A stretch of DNA of 32,000 nt from Candidatus Saccharimonadota bacterium. GTDB lineage: Bacteria; Patescibacteriota; Gracilibacteria; BD1-5; UBA2023. The translations under genes were made by a program, and so were the position numbers. A model generated the notes under the pieces. The model searched no databases. It saw only the letters and a list, made by a program, of their open reading frames with translations, and was not told the DNA's origin. This document shows, piece after piece, positions 2,355 to 12,041 of the stretch. The stretch is taken from the NCBI GenBank assembly GCA_963706795.1, contig OY970170.1, forward strand, positions 900,001-932,000. Reading direction: 5' to 3'. Position 1 is the stretch's first letter. Each line of letters opens with the position of its first letter.

Positions 2355-2891
2355 TTAGACTTCGTCTTTTGGATACTGCTCTAATTTGAGGGTATTCAGT
2401 GCATCAATCATGGAGGCATCAGGGATATCAAGCTCACGGAAGGCCACGCATTCGATTCCGGCTGCCTCAAACATATGACGTACGGCTCGATTTTCGGAAG
2501 CGTGGTGAGGTTTGATATTGAGATAGACTACGCGTTTAATGCCTGATTGGACAATCGTTTGAGCGCAGTTCGCACATGGGAAGAGAGTTGCATATATATG
2601 CGAGCCTTTGAGATTTCTACCAAATGCGTTATAGATCGCATTGCGTTCAGCATGTACGACATAGGTGTGTTTAGAATGCTCAATATCTGAGTCATCTTCG
2701 TCATTCCAAAAACGTGGATCATTGTCATCGCATCCATGCGTGAGCCCGTTATAGCCAATTCCGATAATACGCTTGTCAGTATCTATAACGCACGAACCAT
2801 TTGGTGTTTTCGAATCTTTTGATCTGAATGAAGAGAGAAATGCTGTGGACATAAAATATGCTTCCCAGCTCATTCGCTGTCCTTTTTCCAT
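2355..2891 (-). CDS. deoxycytidylate (dCMP) deaminase, zinc-dependent cytidine/deoxycytidylate deaminase family
   Basis: HAERNA and PCANCA zinc-binding motifs, plus SWEAYFM...IIGIGYNG. The start is ambiguous (2912, 2891 or 2873). The ATG at 2891 lies 7 nt after the upstream TAA. Confidence 0.85.
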   Translation of the reverse strand: MEKGQRMSWEAYFMSTAFLSSFRSKDSKTPNGSCVIDTDKRIIGIGYNGLTHGCDDNDPRFWNDEDDSDIEHSKHTYVVHAERNAIYNAFGRNLKGSHIYATLFPCANCAQTIVQSGIKRVVYLNIKPHHASENRAVRHMFEAAGIECVAFRELDIPDASMIDALNTLKLEQYPKDEV

Positions 2892-2898
2892 GGGATTT

Positions 2899-3258
2899 TT
2901 AGATAATCGCAATGAGGATTTCTTCGCGGATGATCTTGGCGAGATCGATCGTGTTATTTTTCATATTAATGAGTCCGATGTCGTCAGGAGCGAGTGGATC
3001 GTAGTTCGTTTTAAAGAGGCGATCGAATTGGTCGATTTCGAGCTCAAAAGTATTGCCTTCGTATTCGGCAAGACAGGTGAGTGCTTTAACGATGACTTCC
3101 ACGCCGTCATCTACTGCGATGAGGGTGAGAGTAAAATTAAGCGGACCAATAATCACGAGATCTTCGTAGAGAGTTGGAGGAACTGGACCTTCAAATTTAT
3201 GAGTTTGCGAGTCACCCGCATAAGTTTCGAGGAGTGGACCGACGTTGATATCGAACAT
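2899..3258 (-). CDS. DUF177/YceD-like protein, short form without the C-terminal Cys cluster
   Basis: 119 aa. The C-terminal IDLAKIIREEILIAI resembles the conserved DUF177 'IDL..hIrE.hlL..P' segment. A genuine TAA follows, so the usual Cys-rich tail is absent. Recognition is by motif memory only. Confidence 0.45.
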   Translation of the reverse strand: MFDINVGPLLETYAGDSQTHKFEGPVPPTLYEDLVIIGPLNFTLTLIAVDDGVEVIVKALTCLAEYEGNTFELEIDQFDRLFKTNYDPLAPDDIGLINMKNNTIDLAKIIREEILIAII

Positions 3259-3296
3259 GAGATTAATTTTGAGTTGCGGATAATATTCCCCCTGAT

Positions 3297-4319
3297 TTAA
3301 CTTTGAGAAATTAAATGATTCTTCTTATCAAGAATTTCGCCAGATTCGCTCATAGTGAATGTCCATTCGAACTGTTTTCCTTTTATGAGATCGTCCAGCC
3401 AGTATACGTCATCCTTCCACATTTGGTCGTAGGGAATATCTGCGATATTGAACCAATTTGGATTCATTTCCTCGGATTCTAGGGGCTCTGGTCCTGTATA
3501 TTGTCTGCTGCGGTAGACATGACAGTCTTGATTCCACTTGGGTTCGTGAGGAAAACGAAAATGTAGGAGTCCGCTTACTTCGAATTTCTCGGTAGGGATT
3601 ACGAGTCCTGTTTCTTCGGTTAACTCTCTCGTAGCTCCGTCTATGACAGATTCAGCAGAAAGCACTTTTCCGCCAGCGCCATTCCAGTTTCCGGCACCAA
3701 ATCCACGCTTTTTCATCGCGAGAAGTATTTGGTCTTTGGTGTTGAACACAAATGCGAGTGTGCTGATCTGTGGCGGAGACTCGGGAACAACTTCTTGTGT
3801 TCCATAGAAATGCTCTACGATCCAACCAAGATCACCCTTGCTGTTTGGTTCACTTGGAAGTCGTGCGAGGAGCTCGTTTGGGTCCATCCAAAGCCATTCG
3901 TGCCATTCTTTGGGATCAACAAAGGGGATTTCACCCAGTTTGATCTCATATCCCATGGACATCGAGTGAAGCTCGGGATAATCAAATGGACTCAGTTTGC
4001 CCAGGACACGAACTTTATGATCACTTGGATGGATACCGAGTTCTTCGTGTGTTTCTCGAGCAAAAGCTTCGTCATATGTCTCTCCACTGCTGACATGTCC
4101 GCAGGCACTAAAATCGAGTCCACCAGGGAATTTCTTTTTATGGTAGGCTCTGCGAGGAATGCCGAGTTCTCCGGCGTCATTAACGAGCAAGAGATAGACG
4201 CTTCGGATCGTTTGCCCCTGTAGCTGAAGAGCTTCCGGACCACCGTCTGCATAAATATCATCCATGGCACGAGTGTCCACGACGATATCATTTGCATCGA
4301 CGATATCCAGAAGCTCCAT
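3297..4319 (-). CDS. tandem Nudix hydrolase (N-terminal Nudix domain plus C-terminal MutT/MTH1-like domain)
   Basis: Two complete Nudix boxes: GHVSSGETYDEAFARETHEELGI and GGKVLSAESVIDGATRELTEETGLV. The second domain contains KKRGFGAGNWNGAGGKV, which closely resembles the MTH1/NUDT1 signature. Confidence 0.8.
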   Translation of the reverse strand: MELLDIVDANDIVVDTRAMDDIYADGGPEALQLQGQTIRSVYLLLVNDAGELGIPRRAYHKKKFPGGLDFSACGHVSSGETYDEAFARETHEELGIHPSDHKVRVLGKLSPFDYPELHSMSMGYEIKLGEIPFVDPKEWHEWLWMDPNELLARLPSEPNSKGDLGWIVEHFYGTQEVVPESPPQISTLAFVFNTKDQILLAMKKRGFGAGNWNGAGGKVLSAESVIDGATRELTEETGLVIPTEKFEVSGLLHFRFPHEPKWNQDCHVYRSRQYTGPEPLESEEMNPNWFNIADIPYDQMWKDDVYWLDDLIKGKQFEWTFTMSESGEILDKKNHLISQS

Positions 4320-5801: not shown

Positions 5802-7475
5802 CTAAATAATCCCAAGTCTTTTTCCCTTTGCAAGGAGACTTGAGTAGGCTACGAGATACTCGTTAGAGTTCTGGTCGTAGTCGCGTTCGAGTGACTTTTT
5901 CTCATCTTCGAAGATGAGTCTCTGAGCTCTTTTGACAAGCTCATGAAATTTTAGGAGAATCGATTCTCTCTGTGCGTCCGTGTTGTCCTCTTCTATAAAG
6001 AAAGTAAGAGCCTTTATGCGATCAGTTTCGTTGTCGGAAGATTTTCCGAGATGAATATCGATGCGGCTTCTTAGGAAGGATGCAGACGGGATCGCATCAA
6101 AGTGCGATTCATTATAGTCGAGTCGCTCCAAAAACAAATCAAATAAATCGTAGGCTTCGATATATCCCGCCAAAATTTCTCAAAAGTCAAAACCCGTGAC
6201 TTCCTGAGGTGCTTCCTCGATCACACGGGGAAGCTTAATATTTTTGTACTCGTGATAGACTGTTTCCTCGTCCAGATCAAGAAAACGTGCCAGTGCCTTC
6301 ATACTCATATCGACCTCAATTCGAGAAGTCATTCGTCTCACATATTTGAGTGCCTCTCGTAAAATCTGCGTCTTACCAATCGCAGATGCGATATCAAATT
6401 TACGGGCTCCGAGCTCAATAAAGAACTGAACAGGCGAAATCGCATGATCGATGCACGCCTGAAAATCACCACCAGATTTTACAAATTCGTCGGGATCTTT
6501 GCCGGATTCGATGCGGATAATTTTGATGTCGACTTCTTCGTTGAGGAGATTTTCGAGGCTCGCGAAGGTCGCATTGACTCAGGCATTATCCGAATCAAGA
6601 CAGAGATAAATCCGATGACTGAGGCGCTTTAAAAATTGCACATGCTCTTTGGTGAGCGCTGTACCGCTGATCGCGACTGTATTGGTAAATCCTGCCTGAT
6701 GAAGCGCAATTGTGTCCATTTGCCCCTCGGCAATGATCACGAATCCCTTTTTGCTGATCTCAGTTTTTGCGAGATTAAGTCCGTAGAGAATTTCACTCTT
6801 ATTAAAAATCCTCGAAGCGGGAGAATTGAGATATTTTGGCTCACCCTGATCAATAATACGACCAGTAAAAGCCACTATATTTCCTGTATAATTCGCGATA
6901 GGGAAGACGATTCGGCCAAAAAATTTATCACGGGATGACGAGACAAAAACACCCGAATCCATGATATCTTTTTCGCTGAATCCCTTCTCCTTGAGGTGAT
7001 AAAAAAGTCCGCGCGAATCGCCCGAATATCCAATCCCAAATTTTTCGAGTGTTTCGCCCGTGAGTCCTCGTTTTTGGATGTAGGTGAGCTTGTCGATATT
7101 TTCTGGCTTGTAGAGGTCTTGTTGATACCAAGAAGCGACCATTTTGTAGAGCTCGTAGATATCAGTTCGGTTCTCACCACGCTCTTTGTAATAGTCAGTT
7201 TTGAGCTCAACTCCGGCTTCTTTGGCGAGGATTTGGATGGCTTCTCGGAATTCGATTTTTTCGACTTCTGAGAGGAATTTTACTGGCCCACCACCGCGAT
7301 GACATGAGAAACAGTAGGCAATATTTTTTGCCGGCGAAATCATAAAAGATGCTGTCTTTTCGTTATGAAAGGGACAGAGTGCCTTGTAATTTGCACCTGC
7401 TTTTTTCATTTGCACGTATCTTCCAGCCAGATCAACGATATTGATCTTGGCATCTATTTCTTGTGAAAGCGACAT
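5802..7475 (-). CDS. dnaG: DNA primase
   Basis: Zinc finger [29 protein letters not shown] and a Toprim domain. ORF-track pieces 6579..7475 and 5802..6173, plus the unlisted middle part, share one frame and are joined by TGA at 6579-6581 and 6180-6182. The first TGA completes the Toprim 'DSDNA-G' (DxDxAG) motif. Confidence 0.9.
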
Positions 7476-7915
7476 GCGCGAGAGTATATTGAGAAAATCT
7501 CGATTGGGAAGCGACTTTGAGCCAAGAAAAAAATCGGCGAGTGATCTGCCGATTTTCTAAAACTGAATGTTCATGCCACGACCCGCGTATCCAGTTCAGC
7601 AAATTTTGCGACCAGTCCGTCGATCATGTTATGAACGAGTTTGCACTGCCCTTGTGCATAATTACCGAAGCACATAATGGCTTCTTCGAGGCTTTCGAGC
7701 AGTCGCTCGCTTGGTTCGCCAAGATTCTTTGTTTCATCGCAGATCTGGGACAATCCTGTCGCGAAGCGTATTTGGTCGCGTTGCACGATTGGTTCGATTC
7801 TTTTCAACAGTGTATCGACAACCCCTTCAATAATATTGACTGCTGGAGAGTTTGGATCCATATTTGCAAGCAATTTCTTGCATGCTTGGACAAGTGCAGA
7901 ATTTCCCTGTGTCAT
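7454..7915 (-). CDS. hypothetical protein downstream of the RT (115 aa to the TGA at 7571; 153 aa if TGA is read as Gly, ending at TAG 7454)
   Basis: Strong SD (AAAAAGGAGGaagtgATG) with the ATG at 7913-7915. The product looks all-helical and acidic (MTQGNSALVQACKKLLANMDPNSPAVNIIEGVVDTLLKRIEPIVQRD...). I recognise no family. The 3' end is uncertain (see findings). Confidence 0.55.
7530..7556 (-). terminator. intrinsic terminator downstream of the RT cassette
   Basis: Minus strand: agAAAATCGGCagatcactcGCCGATTTTtttcttgg. It lies 15 nt after the TGA at 7571-7573. Confidence 0.55.
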
Positions 7916-8001
7916 CACTTCCTCCTTTTTGTTTCGCTCGGATTGAGCGGAGCGATTATGGACAGAAGGATGGCCTTGTCAAAAGGATTTTTGGTCGACG
8001 C

Positions 8002-9720
8002 CTAGCGACTTACCACAAAGATGCTTTTTTGGAAATCCTCAGGCAGGATATTTTGGTACTGTGTGAGAACCGCTTCCCAGGCATGTGTCATCTCACGAGA
8101 GAAGGCGTAGAGTCTGCCTGTTCTTGCTCCTCTCGTTCGCATAAGTCCAAAATATCCGATGTGATATGCGTGTGAAAAATATCCAAGCATCTGCATGAAT
8201 TCTGGCTGGCTTCGTAGATCTGCCCAATCTTTAATCTTTCGGTCGGAGAAGAGTCTGAGCGTATCGAATGTATATGCGCAAATCCGTCGTTCGATCTTTT
8301 TTGGAGGCATAAATCGAAAATTGCTCTCAGTCCGATCAAATCATGATGTATCCTGAGTTATTGCATCAGCTGGAATGCTTGCACCCCAAATGTTATAGGC
8401 TTTTTTGTTTGTGAGATAGCTTTTCTTTTCGGGTGCAATAACGAGTCCACAGTCTGTAATGACCTCATCGATTTTAGCCCGAATGTCCTCGGGAATCGTA
8501 TGCGAAGAGAAGATCACAATATCATCCGCATATCGGGCATATTCAAGCTGCGTTGAGGTTTTGTTATTGTGCTGACGCCAGGCTCTCGGTGAGCGTGAAT
8601 AGTCACGGATAATCTTGTAGATCCACTTATCAATCGCGTACTGACCAAAGAGATTTGCGATCATTGGGCTGATATGACTTCCTTGTGCGAGGCGATTATC
8701 TACTCAGGCAATGCGAGTAATGCCTCTTGCTGCATATTCGAGTGTATCTTTTGGAAGTTTGGATGTAGTGGGTGATCTTTGTAGTTCGTGCACAAGACCT
8801 CTCTTCGCCATGTCGAGAGTAATACTCGGGAAGAAATTTCTGATATCGATCTGATAGACGCTTTTAATTTTTGTGTGCCTTAGATTATGAAATCCATCGA
8901 GCGTTCTCCTGAGTCATTCGTATGCGCCAGATCCAGGTCGGAAGCCACAAACTGAATCCGAAAGCCAGCTATTATTGAGACCGCAAAGTGCGAGTTTTTG
9001 GGCTGCGCGCACTATATTTATGGGTTCTGTAGGGATAGAAAACGTACTCGAAAGCACGCTGTAGAGCTTGAGATATGGGTCATTTCTTGGTGTAAATTCC
9101 CAATTTGCGTCCTGCCAATTAAAAATATCGTGTTCGATATCATTGTATTTTGCTGCTCTGAGTGCAGAAAGCTTATGAAAAGCCAGATATGCATCCTGCA
9201 GGTTTTTACTTTCGTCCATTGTCACAAATGCCTTCGAACCATCAGGAGACTCTATTTTTCGCGTTTTTCAGTTTCACTTCGGGATTTCAAATTGCCGATA
9301 AATCTTGCCTGGATGCTCTTCGATAGTGGTAAGTGCACTATGGGTGATATTTGCAATAATACTTAAAAGAAGGGTCTTTTCGGGCATAATATCTGCTTCC
9401 TGCCGAGTCTTTTCATGTGCTTGCCCAAAATACAGGCTGGAGAGCATGCTTGAGTTTTGAACTCCTGCTATAGCTGCAAGAGCACAGGCTTCGGCAACCA
9501 TTTGGCGTTCTTTCAGAAGAGTCTCTTTGTTCGGTTTTTCCTCATTCATTTGAGAGGGCACATCTGTGCCTTCTAAAACATCATTTACCTGCTGTTTTAC
9601 GGGTGAATCCGTGATATCAAATTTGCTCGCTGCATCCTGCACATCTGGTCGCTCAAAAACGCCACTTTCTTTTTGAGAAGAAAGAGCGCTATCCTGAGGT
9701 AATCAGTGCTTTTGTGGCAT
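8002..9720 (-). CDS. stand-alone reverse transcriptase (retron / group-II-like / defence-associated RT superfamily), 572 aa under code 25
   Basis: Four ORF-track pieces (9274..9642, 8914..9225, 8341..8664, 8002..8310) share one frame. They are joined by TGA at 9703, 9274, 9268, 8914, 8704 and 8341. RT motifs seen: FEIPK-G-N-G-KTRKIESP (motif 1), CGFRPGSGAYEGL (2a), IDIRNFFPSI (2), RLAQGSHISPMIANLF (4), YARYADDIVIFS (5), GLVIAPEKKSYL (6) and YNIWGASI (7). The stop is a genuine TAG at 8002. The start (ATG 9720) has no SD and is uncertain. Confidence 0.85.
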
Positions 9721-9737
9721 GAGAGACAATTTTCTTA

Positions 9738-9782
9738 ATTTTACACTAAAAAACTTGATTCGGCAATTATTGCCACTATGCT
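9738..9782. promoter_or_regulatory. candidate back-to-back divergent promoters flanking a 13-nt palindrome
   Basis: Minus strand: TTGCCG (9766-9761), 17 nt, TAAAAT (9743-9738), facing the RT. Plus strand: TTGATT (9755-9760), 16 nt, TATGCT (9777-9782). The palindrome GGCAATaATTGCC lies at 9762-9774. These are hexamer matches by eye only. Confidence 0.25.
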
Positions 9783-10077
9783 ACAAAACGCGGTAGCTTT
9801 ACGGTCGATTCTTGGAAGCTCTGAAGCGAATGAGATGTATCGTTCACGAAGAGATTTACTTCCCTGAGGTACTCCGTCGATGACGGACAAGATTTGTAAA
9901 ACTGGTATGAATTTGTCGGCATGTCTTAGACCCAAATTGTGTTTCACTGATTTGCGTTTACGACTGAAATGCTTTTCAATGGTATCAGCCGAAAACCAAA
10001 CCCATGATTCTCAGCATACTGTGCTTCGAATTCATGTATTTGTTTTCTACGAACATCAAATGCGTACCGCGTTGTTC
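9783..10077. ncRNA. candidate structured non-coding RNA adjacent to the RT (strand unresolved)
   Basis: Lies in the 395-nt gap between the uvrC stop and the RT start, with no convincing ORF. It is bracketed by the 9-nt inverted repeat AACGCGGTA (9787-9795) / TACCGCGTT (10065-10073). Internal hairpins lie at 10003-10036 and 9873-9887. Confidence 0.3.
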
Positions 10078-10082
10078 TTAAA

Positions 10083-10108
10083 GCCTCGATTCATTCGAGG
10101 TCTTTTTT
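10083..10108 (+). terminator. intrinsic terminator-like hairpin; the T-run is on the plus strand
   Basis: gCCTCGAttcatTCGAGGtctttttt, 8 nt from the uvrC TAA. On the minus strand (uvrC sense) the stem is followed only by CTTT. Confidence 0.5.
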
Positions 10109-10115
10109 ATGCCCA

Positions 10116-12041
10116 TTATCCAAAAAGTCCGTGATCCTTTAGGGTTTGTAATTGTGTGGCGTTGCATGCACTCAGGAGATCACTCTCAGAGAGTTCTTTA
10201 ATACCGTCCACAGAACCCGCGAGCTTGAGGAGTTTTTTGCGCGTGGTGGGACCAAATCATGGAAGCTCTTCGAGGATATTTTTCTTCATAGCCTTCGATC
10301 GGGCAGATCGGTTAAAATTGATCGCAAATCGGTGAGCTTCGTCGCGGATTTTTTGGAGAAGCATGAGCTCAGGACTCCCATGCTCAAATCGTATAGAGAT
10401 ATTGGAGTCCGGTATAAAAATCTCTTCCTCGCGCTTTGCAAGCGAGCAAAAATAGGGGAGACACTGCACGAGTGACTCATAAAATTCGTCTCGTGATTGC
10501 TCTGGATTTTCGTGAGCGGCTCCGTATTTCTCGATCCCGCGGTGAACTCATTCGAGCGCGCTGGAGAGTTGTCATTTTCCACCATCTATGACGATCATAG
10601 TGGGGAAGTTTGATTGCTCGAATCATTCGATTGTTCGGCGCTCCATGATCTCGCGCATACTCTCGAAGTCATCTATTTTGTCAGCTTCGAGGGTCTTGAG
10701 TTTATATTTGCGGTAGAGCGTATTTTCGCTCTTCCCATTGACGATAACCGAGCGCGAGGCTACTGTAAATTGTCCGTTGGTGTGGCTGTTGTCATAGCAC
10801 TCAAAAGTGATCGGCCCTGACTTTGGGATTTCGTAGCCGAGCTCTTCAAGAATATTGCTCATCGTGCCCTTGGTGAGGGTTTTTTTGGTGAGATTTTCCA
10901 TCTCGGACCGATAGGCAAAATTCATGAGATTGGTCTTGGCGAACTTGAGGAGATCAGCTTTTGGACCAGTTTCTCCGCGATCGATCGAGACATGATTCGC
11001 GCGTAAAAACTCTGCGATTGCTGTACCAGTGAGATCAATCTCTGTGATGAGTCGATCAATTGGGAGCTCTTCACTATAGCGTTCAGCCAAAAATTGCTCG
11101 ACGATTTCTGTGGTATCTTCTTCGAGTGGGGCTTCGATTTTGGATTGTACGACTCATTGGATTTCGCCTCCTCGCACGGCAGTGACTCCGATAAACCGTT
11201 TGTCATATTTTTCGAGGTATTCGACAATATCGGCATTACCCTTGATGGCATCGCGGGCAACTTGGCGCTCACCGAGTACACCGATGGATTCGATCTGTTC
11301 TTTGATTTTTTGAGCTTCTTCGAATTCGAGGGCTTTCGCTCTCTTGAGCATTTTTTCTTTAAGACCTTCCACGACTTCGCTCATTTGGCCGCGGAGGAAT
11401 TTTTTCATGGCTTCTACATTTTCTTTATGGGCGCCGAGGGTTTCTTTGGTCAGTAGGCATGGAGCAGGGCAGAGGCCGATGTAGTAGTCCATACACGGAG
11501 GAGTTCTGCCGGCTTTTGCGGTGATAATCGTCTCACCATTTTGCGTATCGAATTTCATCCGACAAGACCGAACTTTAAAAATTCTACGAAGATTTTTAAG
11601 GGTGAGATTGATGCTTGCGCCGCTGGTATACGGGCCAAAGTAGATACCACGAGGTGGCTTCTGTCTTCCTTTAAAGACCTCGCTTACAGGGCCTTCCGAA
11701 AATACGATATATGACAGATTTTTGTCATCCTTCATGAGCACATTGTATTTTGGACGGTGCTTTTTGATGAGATTAGTCTCGAGTACGAGAGCTTCTACAT
11801 CCGTGCCAGTTTCGAGCCATTCGATATCTGCGACCTGGCCGACCATCTGCGTTTTGGCTGCATTGAGCGATCCGTGTCCATTAAAATACGAATGCACCCG
11901 ACTCTTGAGATTGACTGATTTGCCGACATATAAAATCGTCCCTTGGGTGTTTTTCATGATATAAACACCAGGACGAGACGGGAGATTTTTGAGGATTGGA
12001 TCGAGGGAGGGTTTCACGGAATCTATTCTAGAAGTATGCAC
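10116..12041 (-). CDS. uvrC: excinuclease ABC subunit C
   Basis: GIY-YIG N-terminus (PGVYIMKNTQGTILYVGKSVNLKSRVHSYF), the UvrC endonuclease region and a C-terminal (HhH)2 domain. Pieces 11154..12041, 10623..11090 and 10257..10469 are in one frame. Five in-frame TGA lie at 11154, 10623, 10572, 10548 and 10257. TGA 10572 completes the conserved 'IDGGK-G-QL' motif. The stop is TAA at 10116. Confidence 0.92.

Follow-up and report, generated by a model that had tools for sequence, protein, structure and literature searches.

A candidate free-standing retron-like RNA gene beside an atypical reverse transcriptase in a Gracilibacteria genome

The locus and its reverse transcriptase

We analysed a window of 32,000 nt (the whole stretch of chromosomal DNA under study; positions 900,001 to 932,000 of contig OY970170.1, assembly GCA_963706795.1) from a Candidatus Saccharimonadota bacterium placed by GTDB among the Gracilibacteria. 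The subject is a 395-nt gap next to a gene for a retron-like reverse transcriptase (RT), and the structured RNA that this gap is predicted to encode. Taken as a whole, the gap stands out from chance: this is evident from its folding z-scores, from purifying selection and from covariation in homologous loci. On the minus strand the order is uvrC (12041-10116), the gap, the RT gene (9720-8005), a small open reading frame (ORF), dnaG (7475-5802) and rpoD.

The RT ORF contains six in-frame TGA codons and no other stops. Three of the six are aligned with Gly in a standard-code homologue (EIPKGNGKTR, MGLR). Reading TGA as a sense codon (Gly, code 25) in this genome fits the code of Gracilibacteria/Absconditabacteria; ORF lists made with table 11 break up most genes of the window, TGA being sense.

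8005..9720, minus strand: gene for the retron-like RT, 572 codons, six of them TGA read as Gly

One boundary of the gap is the uvrC stop codon (10116-10118). The other is the RT start, an ATG at 9720 that is kept in the related locus L014 (MPQKHGL in the window, MPHKNGL in L014). The N-terminal extension of the RT (9300-9720, codons 1-140) evolves fast, with 36% identity vs 58% overall; its codon usage is coding-like and its conservation by codon position follows 2 > 1 > 3. The conserved start together with this coding pattern shows that the gap boundaries are correct. A downstream RT start (M58 or M74), which would have left 9502-9730 to the RNA, was considered and rejected on account of the conserved MPxKxGL and the coding signals of the extension. 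Coding-like codon usage was found in none of the frames of the gap. With its two boundaries, this makes the non-coding gap of the initial annotation a real one.

The RT matches Pfam RVT_1 (6e-15). Its top PADLOC models are retron RTs (the best being RT_III-A, 1.4e-26, with partial coverage of the model), and the nearest solved structures are the RTs of retrons Kva2, Ec86 and Ec67. The YADD catalytic motif is intact throughout the RT family described below. Between RT motifs 1 and 2 lies a finger insertion of ~73 aa (9021-9242, minus strand; RT codons 160-233), which is common to the related proteins P0044, P0162 and P0031 and is not present in P0001, P0022 and P0027. Judged by these comparisons, the RT is retron-related yet atypical, and retron RTs are its nearest neighbours in sequence.

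The first search with the full-length RT protein and two scans of genome contigs returned distant retron RTs only. A metagenome scan yielded canonical retron-type loci only (L002-L013, with NAxxH and VTG motifs), which belong to a different subfamily, and a word-indexed search with an alignment of the subclade was swamped by generic retron RTs. The protein P0001, 26% identical to the window RT, carries the same unusual motifs; an exhaustive phmmer search seeded with it exposed a family of ~20-30 clusters. BLAST of the window RT against this family gave P0044 (68% identical), P0031 (31%) and a sister clade of ~590 aa proteins. No search other than this exhaustive one brought up the close relative P0044, and a follow-up search with P0044 added P0162 (36% identical to the window RT; annotated at NCBI as Candidatus Gracilibacteria). 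Synteny with the window (uvrC-gap-RT-orf-dnaG) is seen in two loci, L014 and L015, the RT of L014 being 58-68% identical to that of the window.

Structure and conservation of the gap

The initial annotation had described a 9-nt inverted repeat bracketing most of the gap (9787-9795 and 10065-10073). The repeat is present and exact. Alone it carries no significance: at -20.0 kcal/mol, the most stable long-range duplex of the gap equals the mean of dinucleotide shuffles, and ~45% of these gave an equal or better one (p ~0.45), in agreement with the caveat that had been attached to the repeat. Folding of both strands against shuffled controls, a check suggested at the same time, gave z = -4.6 for the gap on the plus strand and z = -3.1 on the minus strand. 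In sliding windows the excess of structure spans ~9550 to 10150. For the predicted transcript (9789-10108) the minimum free energy (MFE) is -93.4 kcal/mol (z = -3.4), and none of 100 shuffles was as stable. A scan with Rfam, also suggested there, assigned the RNA to no family: over the whole 32-kb window, both strands, nothing reached the gathering score, and around the gap only two chance-level matches appeared at E<=10.

At four-fold degenerate sites the window is 42% identical to L014/L015, in uvrC and in the RT gene alike. The gap compared with L014 is a mosaic in which conserved modules (88-94%) alternate with neutral-like stretches (28-43%). Identity is 88% at 9787-9812, 90% at 9870-9910, 94% at 10074-10108 and 76% at 10037-10073; it is 28% at 9813-9869, with two 11-nt indels, and 43% at 9911-9985. 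The features predicted in the gap are given below in order of position.

9738..9766, minus strand: RT promoter-like site, TTGCCG-17-TAAAAT (9/12), back to back with the RNA promoter
9755..9782, plus strand: predicted RNA promoter, -35 TTGATT (9755-9760), 16-nt spacer, -10 TATGCT (9777-9782), start at ~9788-9790
9762..9774, no strand assigned: 13-nt perfect palindrome GGCAATTATTGCC, inside the spacer of the plus-strand promoter and overlapping the -35 element of the RT promoter
9787..9795, plus strand: 5' arm of the closing helix P1, AACGCGGTA, from the exact 9-nt inverted repeat
9789..10108, plus strand: predicted transcript of a retron-like non-coding RNA (ncRNA), ~320 nt, with bounds taken from promoter and terminator
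9796..9797, plus strand: G-C right after the 5' arm (arm-G-C-U pattern); G9796 is the candidate priming (branching) guanosine
9798..9806, plus strand: 5' strand of helix P2, UUUACGGUC, paired with 9891-9900
9813..9869, plus strand: variable inserted stem-loop, not in the 122-nt RNA of L017
9873..9887, plus strand: conserved 6-bp hairpin with triloop GAU and flanks UAC ... CAAG, invariant in L014
9891..9900, plus strand: 3' strand of helix P2, GAU-U-UGUAAA
9902..9988, plus strand: domain P3, with a conserved closing helix CUGGUA (9902-9907) / UAUCAG (9983-9988)
10003..10036, plus strand: 34-nt imperfect hairpin (hp34), its stem kept in L014 with one G-C changed to G.U
10039..10060, plus strand: small hairpin UUUG ... 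CAAA beside the 3' arm, with compensatory GUUG ... CAAC in L014
10063..10073, plus strand: C-G followed by the 3' arm of P1, TACCGCGTT (10065-10073), partner in the inverted repeat
10083..10108, plus strand: intrinsic terminator, hairpin and T6; a change in L014 keeps the stem only as U.G on the plus sense

Helix P1 extends beyond the 9-nt repeat by a G-C and a C-G pair across a one-base bulge. In L014 its arms read GACGTGGTG / CACCACGTT, so that the proposed check for compensatory substitutions in homologous RT loci found two compensatory pairs and one change of A-U to G.U. Window and L014, folded independently, both form P1 in their MFE structures. In P2, two G.U pairs of the window are G-C in L014; by hand alignment, the L017 RNA also has G-C at those two pairs, along with the identical bulged U and one exchange of C-G for U-A.

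The 34-nt and 6-bp hairpins noted initially can be read directly from the sequence and also appear in the folds. We had first judged hp34 to be unsupported, its RT-sense stem being broken in L014; this was reversed, as the stem is kept on the plus sense through G.U. The interior of P3 (9911-9985) evolves fast and in a neutral-like manner. Its predicted inner helices include six pairs changed on both sides, which is weak evidence, the structure having been derived from the same two sequences. The plus-sense consensus of the window and L014 holds 64 pairs, and eight of them are changed on both sides, vs 1-3 in slid controls.

The 6-bp hairpin extends to remote members of the family. In an ungapped alignment with L016, L017 and the L023 units, four of the six pairs are changed on both sides and 97% of the cells are paired; the family consensus has the loop G(A/U)(U/C) and the flanks xAC ... 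CxAG. A descriptor of this hairpin gave no background match in 380 kb of fetched DNA, all matches lying on the inferred RNA strand. This motif is family-wide, and the hairpin is likely the RT-binding element.

Strand and family-wide architecture of the RNA

All 28 bases of the predicted RNA promoter are invariant in L014. The 13-nt palindrome, present between back-to-back promoter-like pairs as initially described, is 100% conserved in L014 against 42% at four-fold sites, and it is a possible operator for both divergent promoters. A regulator gene for it was not identified. The plus-strand hairpin with a T-run at 10083-10108, noted at the outset as well, was reported by the terminator scan; this terminator probably also ends the convergent uvrC.

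In L016 (TTGACT-16-TATAAT), L018 (TTGACA-16-TAAAAT) and L019 (TTGACA-16-TACAAT), sigma-70 promoters with 11/12 matches stand between RNA and RT on the strand opposite the RT, their -10 elements ending 6-7 nt before the 5' arm. L019 likewise has back-to-back promoters (minus 3933..3906 and plus 3942..3969, each 11/12). On the strand opposite the RT, the window and L016-L019 (four of the four relatives scanned) have an intrinsic terminator within ~10 nt downstream of the 3' arm. Read in the RT sense, this terminator hairpin falls just before the 5' arm and leaves no space for a promoter. One of the two readings in the initial annotation was a ~315-nt plus-strand RNA, bounded by the 9755-9782 promoter and the 10083-10108 terminator and paired at its ends. 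Such a unit (promoter, arm, arm and terminator, opposite the RT strand) occurs in five independent relatives, and the wobble pairs, too, are specific to this strand.

Single-sided changes in P1, P2, hp34, the terminator and the L016 hairpin all give G.U on the plus sense and A.C on the RT sense. The resulting count is ~4-7 to 0 (p roughly 0.01-0.06), with P1, hp34, the terminator and the conserved hairpin defined regardless of strand. Flanks like those of the conserved hairpin in the L023 units are seen in the window, L016 and L017 only when these loci are read from the strand opposite the RT.

The order arm-G-C-U ... C-G-arm'-terminator is present in all RT-adjacent RNAs found, namely those of the window, L014, L016-L019, L023 (x4), L024 (x5) and L026/27. 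Elsewhere the arm descriptor produced ~22 chance matches, all without a terminator. The arms differ in primary sequence among the loci and the architecture recurs. BLAST of the window RNA against the regions upstream of the RT in L016, L017 and L001 showed no sequence similarity; as far as the sequences tell, RNA homology with the distant relatives is visible only as motif and architecture. Conservation of the RNA, its helices, its strand and its family-wide association with this RT clade are what these data show.

The sister clade carries RNAs of the same type. Upstream of the RT P0016, tandem arrays of four and five ncRNA units of ~180 nt were found in L023 (2956-3901, plus strand) and L024 (2703-3901, plus strand), respectively. 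Every unit ends with a terminator, and a promoter-like TTGTCN-17-TAGCGT, identified by eye, stands ahead of the middle ones. The 5' 85 nt of the units are constant, and the 3' ~90 nt, which hold the hairpins beside the 3' arm, vary; by analogy, we read these two halves as the msr/msd division. Unit 4 of the arrays has a compensatory arm change from CUGG/CCAG to CCGG/CCGG. The content of units is unlike between L023 and L024, which are closely related contigs with an identical RT protein from different metagenome samples. The sister-clade RNAs (L023/L024, L026/27) are RT-sense, their strand being set by the unit terminators and in L026 also by a promoter, TTGACA-17-TATAAT, found by eye. Taken with the strand evidence in the Gracilibacteria-type loci, this means that the RNA gene is inverted relative to the RT in the Gracilibacteria-type subclade.

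Neighbouring genes differ among members of the family. The sister-clade RTs (~590-630 aa) are always followed by a protein of ~1060 aa (L020 5795-8992, L023 5773-8952, L026 3596-6574), which has no PADLOC match and a single Pfam match, the sub-threshold AAA_16. L020 has a gap of 83 nt upstream of the RT, and an RNA of the family type was not found within 4 kb. In L016, from the Gracilibacteria metagenome-assembled genome GCA_030684075.1, a 360-aa SMC_N/AAA_15/AAA_21 ATPase follows the RT (2451-3533, plus strand). ATPases of this kind occur as effectors in some retron and Septu-type systems; none is present in the window.

The small ORF between the RT gene and dnaG in the window (7454-7918, minus strand) has a strong AAGGAGG ribosome-binding site and encodes 114 aa up to a TGA (about 7915 to 7571), or ~153 aa, as far as 7454, if the TGA is read through. 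L015 has an ORF at the equivalent position, poorly conserved. No match to Pfam, NCBIfam or PADLOC was obtained for the ORF of the window, whose product could be a partner of the RT or unrelated to it. The dnaG-rpoD neighbourhood hosts RTs of the family in two distantly related genomes (window 5802-12041; L019 1948-7180), in the orders uvrC-RNA-RT-orf-dnaG-rpoD and dnaG-RNA-RT-...-rpoD, respectively. The shared location may mark a hot spot of insertion or be coincidental.

A retron-like RNA gene and its alternatives

We consider it highly probable that the gap is an independent plus-strand gene for a structured RNA of ~320 nt (roughly 9789-10108), read away from the RT and distinct from an RT leader. 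With nearly the same confidence, the RNA can be called a functional partner of the neighbouring RT. The overall explanation that we favour, if with some reserve, is a free-standing divergent retron-like RNA gene that is likely the primer and template of its cognate retron-like RT. Reverse transcription of the RNA in the retron manner is proposed tentatively, by analogy with known retrons.

The proposed mechanism is as follows. The 9755-9782 promoter, back to back with the RT promoter, would start the RNA at the first bases of the 5' arm. This arm would pair with the 3' arm ~270 nt downstream, with the intrinsic terminator ~10 nt further. The RT would recognise the conserved 5' module (helix P2 and the GAU-loop hairpin), use the 2'-OH of G9796, directly after the 5' arm, and copy the RNA from the C just upstream of the 3' arm. 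The product would be a branched, RNA-linked single-stranded DNA. That the RT binds this RNA, primes at G9796 and makes cDNA is what we infer, and the same holds for any role in defence.

Likeness to retrons (Ec86/Eco1) is seen at several levels. The RT gene adjoins a structured ncRNA whose ends are paired by inverted repeats; conserved 5' stem-loops are followed by hairpins beside the 3' arm; and the RT is nearest to retron RT models and to solved retron RTs. The arm-G-C ... C-G-arm' geometry is common to Ec86 and the window RNA. For Ec86 we used an msr-msd sequence that is 100% identical to 48 E. coli genomes, where it lies between the effector and RT genes, co-oriented with them. We take branching in Ec86 to occur at the G after the 5' arm and templating to begin with the C that precedes the final G.

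A number of observations weigh against the retron-like explanation. The msr, msd and ret of canonical retrons make up one RNA (Mestre et al. 2020, PMC7736814). By its gene model the window RNA is not co-transcribed with the RT: in the subclade of the window the RNA lies on the strand opposite the RT and is divergent, with its own predicted promoter and terminator, and the RT has a separate promoter-like site. Both motifs characteristic of retron RTs, NAXXH (region X, between RT2 and RT3) and the VTG triplet (region Y, RT7), are absent; NAXXH has been tied to initiation/catalysis and VTG to msr recognition in retron work (Mestre et al. 2020, PMC7736814). At the aligned NAXXH site the window RT has GFRPGSGAYEGLR (GAYEG). 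Most RTs of the family read S-A-Y-x-G there (SAxxG), with G-A-Y in the nearest relatives of the window and W in rows translated with code 4; only the A is retained, and H is replaced by G. At the VTG site the window reads N-I-W-G and its relatives V-W-G; of the triplet they keep only its most conserved residue, the G. The top NCBIfam match, retron_St85_RT, scores 72.9 bits vs a cut-off of 235.

The RT also differs from those of retrons in its N-terminal extension and ~73-aa finger insertion, it comes from a code-25 host within the candidate phyla radiation, and a recognisable effector gene was not found in the 32-kb window. The RNA promoter of the window matches at 8/12 positions, below the scan threshold, and promoter scores use the sigma-70 consensus, which may not hold in code-25 bacteria. 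The detailed covariation comes from one close relative, whose sequence, with that of the window, also served to derive most of the structure. As NAXXH, VTG, a score above the curated thresholds and the single transcript are all lacking, we do not file the system in a described retron type. We regard it as a retron-like variant outside those types that probably works like a retron.

Other RT systems were compared as well. DRT2 pairs a UG2 RT with a structured ncRNA a few hundred nucleotides long, which lies co-oriented upstream of the RT gene and is the template of rolling-circle reverse transcription. The window shares with DRT2 a single RT with an adjacent structured ncRNA. It differs in that its RT scores 26.8 bits against Drt2 (NF041746; cut-off 390), over the catalytic core only, and in that the DRT2 ncRNA is co-oriented with the RT; Rfam and profile searches gave no link between the RNAs. 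The group II intron RT/maturase is the second-best protein family match of the RT, and the GsI-IIC RT is among its PDB matches. The score to the group II RT model TIGR04416 of NCBIfam is, however, 65 bits, far under the cut-off of 300, and neither an intron RNA in the window nor maturase/endonuclease domains were detected.

A search of the 32-kb window for template/variable repeats of a diversity-generating retroelement (DGR) and for targets of the RNA found no further copy of the RNA region, whole or in part, nor is there a template/variable repeat pair near the RT. DGR RTs make up ~80% of the RTs in candidate phyla radiation bacteria, and retron-type RTs are thus uncommon there. A full-text literature search found neither retrons described in Patescibacteria/Gracilibacteria nor any account of a divergent ncRNA gene in a retron, with one 2026 preprint of possible relevance not covered.

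The plus-strand RNA might instead partner or regulate the RT system without being reverse-transcribed, as a scaffold, an antitoxin-like or a regulatory RNA. The gene model and the conservation fit this idea equally well, and it would suit an RNA made as its own transcript beside an RT that lacks both NAXXH and VTG, the motifs linked to initiation/catalysis and to msr recognition. Yet the paired ends with their conserved G-C / C-G junction mirror the priming site of Ec86, YADD is intact across the family, and the sister-clade units vary in the hairpins beside the 3' arm and keep a constant 5' half, as template regions would. We think such a role unlikely, though it keeps appreciable weight. Far less credit can be given to the other reading of the initial annotation, a canonical minus-strand msr-msd, transcribed together with the RT from upstream. 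Its retron-like side was borne out by the covarying flanking repeats, the G after the 5' arm and the retron-related RT; the strand and the co-transcription were not. The Watson-Crick pairing and the compensatory changes seen in P1 and the hairpins would look alike on either strand, retrons normally have an RT-sense msr-msd, and the sister-clade RNAs are RT-sense. On the RT sense, however, at least five pairs turn into A.C mismatches, hp34 drops out of the consensus fold and the hairpin flanks mismatch the L023 units. The RT also has a promoter of its own, placed between it and the element, and in all Gracilibacteria-type loci the RT-sense 5' arm has a terminator hairpin <=~10 nt before it and no promoter. 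We therefore hold this reading to be improbable.

The gap might contain no RNA gene at all and serve as a control region at the DNA level, with divergent promoters, an operator palindrome and a bidirectional uvrC terminator, the helices being incidental. The block of promoters and palindrome and the terminator are indeed among the most conserved stretches, and the repeat by itself is not significant. Against this stand ~130 nt of strong conservation far from the promoters (9787-9812, 9870-9910, 10037-10073), compensatory and wobble-only changes in the helices, and an arm/hairpin architecture that recurs with unrelated primary sequence in distant relatives; the chance that the gap is a control region only seems slight. 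A small protein, encoded in a 68-aa frame (9741-9947, minus strand), as the initial annotation had allowed, or in an 84-aa frame (9880-10134, plus strand), has hardly any standing. The open frames exist and are longer under code 25, but the similarity in L014 is split over frames with TAA/TAG interruptions and indels of 11+11, 2 and 1 nt, and neither coding-like codon usage nor PADLOC matches were seen. A GVPQGS peptide in an RT-sense frame of the gap was considered as a remnant of an RT motif and rejected, being without a profile match and in a frame that is not conserved.

We return to the free-standing retron-like RNA gene. More speculatively, the RT clade, found in code-25 bacteria and in the sister clade with RTs of ~590 aa, may form a new retron-like class whose template RNA is a free-standing gene acting in trans. 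In L023/L024 this gene may have multiplied into a natural multi-template system, whose units would have one RT-recognition half in common and differ in their template hairpins, yielding several RT-DNAs from one enzyme.

To our knowledge, all described retrons couple template RNA and RT in one transcript. Retrons are studied as anti-phage systems and as in-cell DNA-writing tools. A separate, self-terminated RNA gene would, if our explanation is true, imply natural trans recognition between RT and RNA. Retron-related RTs without both marker motifs would widen the known design space, as would the arrays of RNA genes with exchangeable template halves in the relatives, and the 122-nt RNA of L017 would offer a compact natural example for experiment. 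Such systems would then have a place in candidate phyla radiation bacteria, most of whose RTs are DGR RTs.

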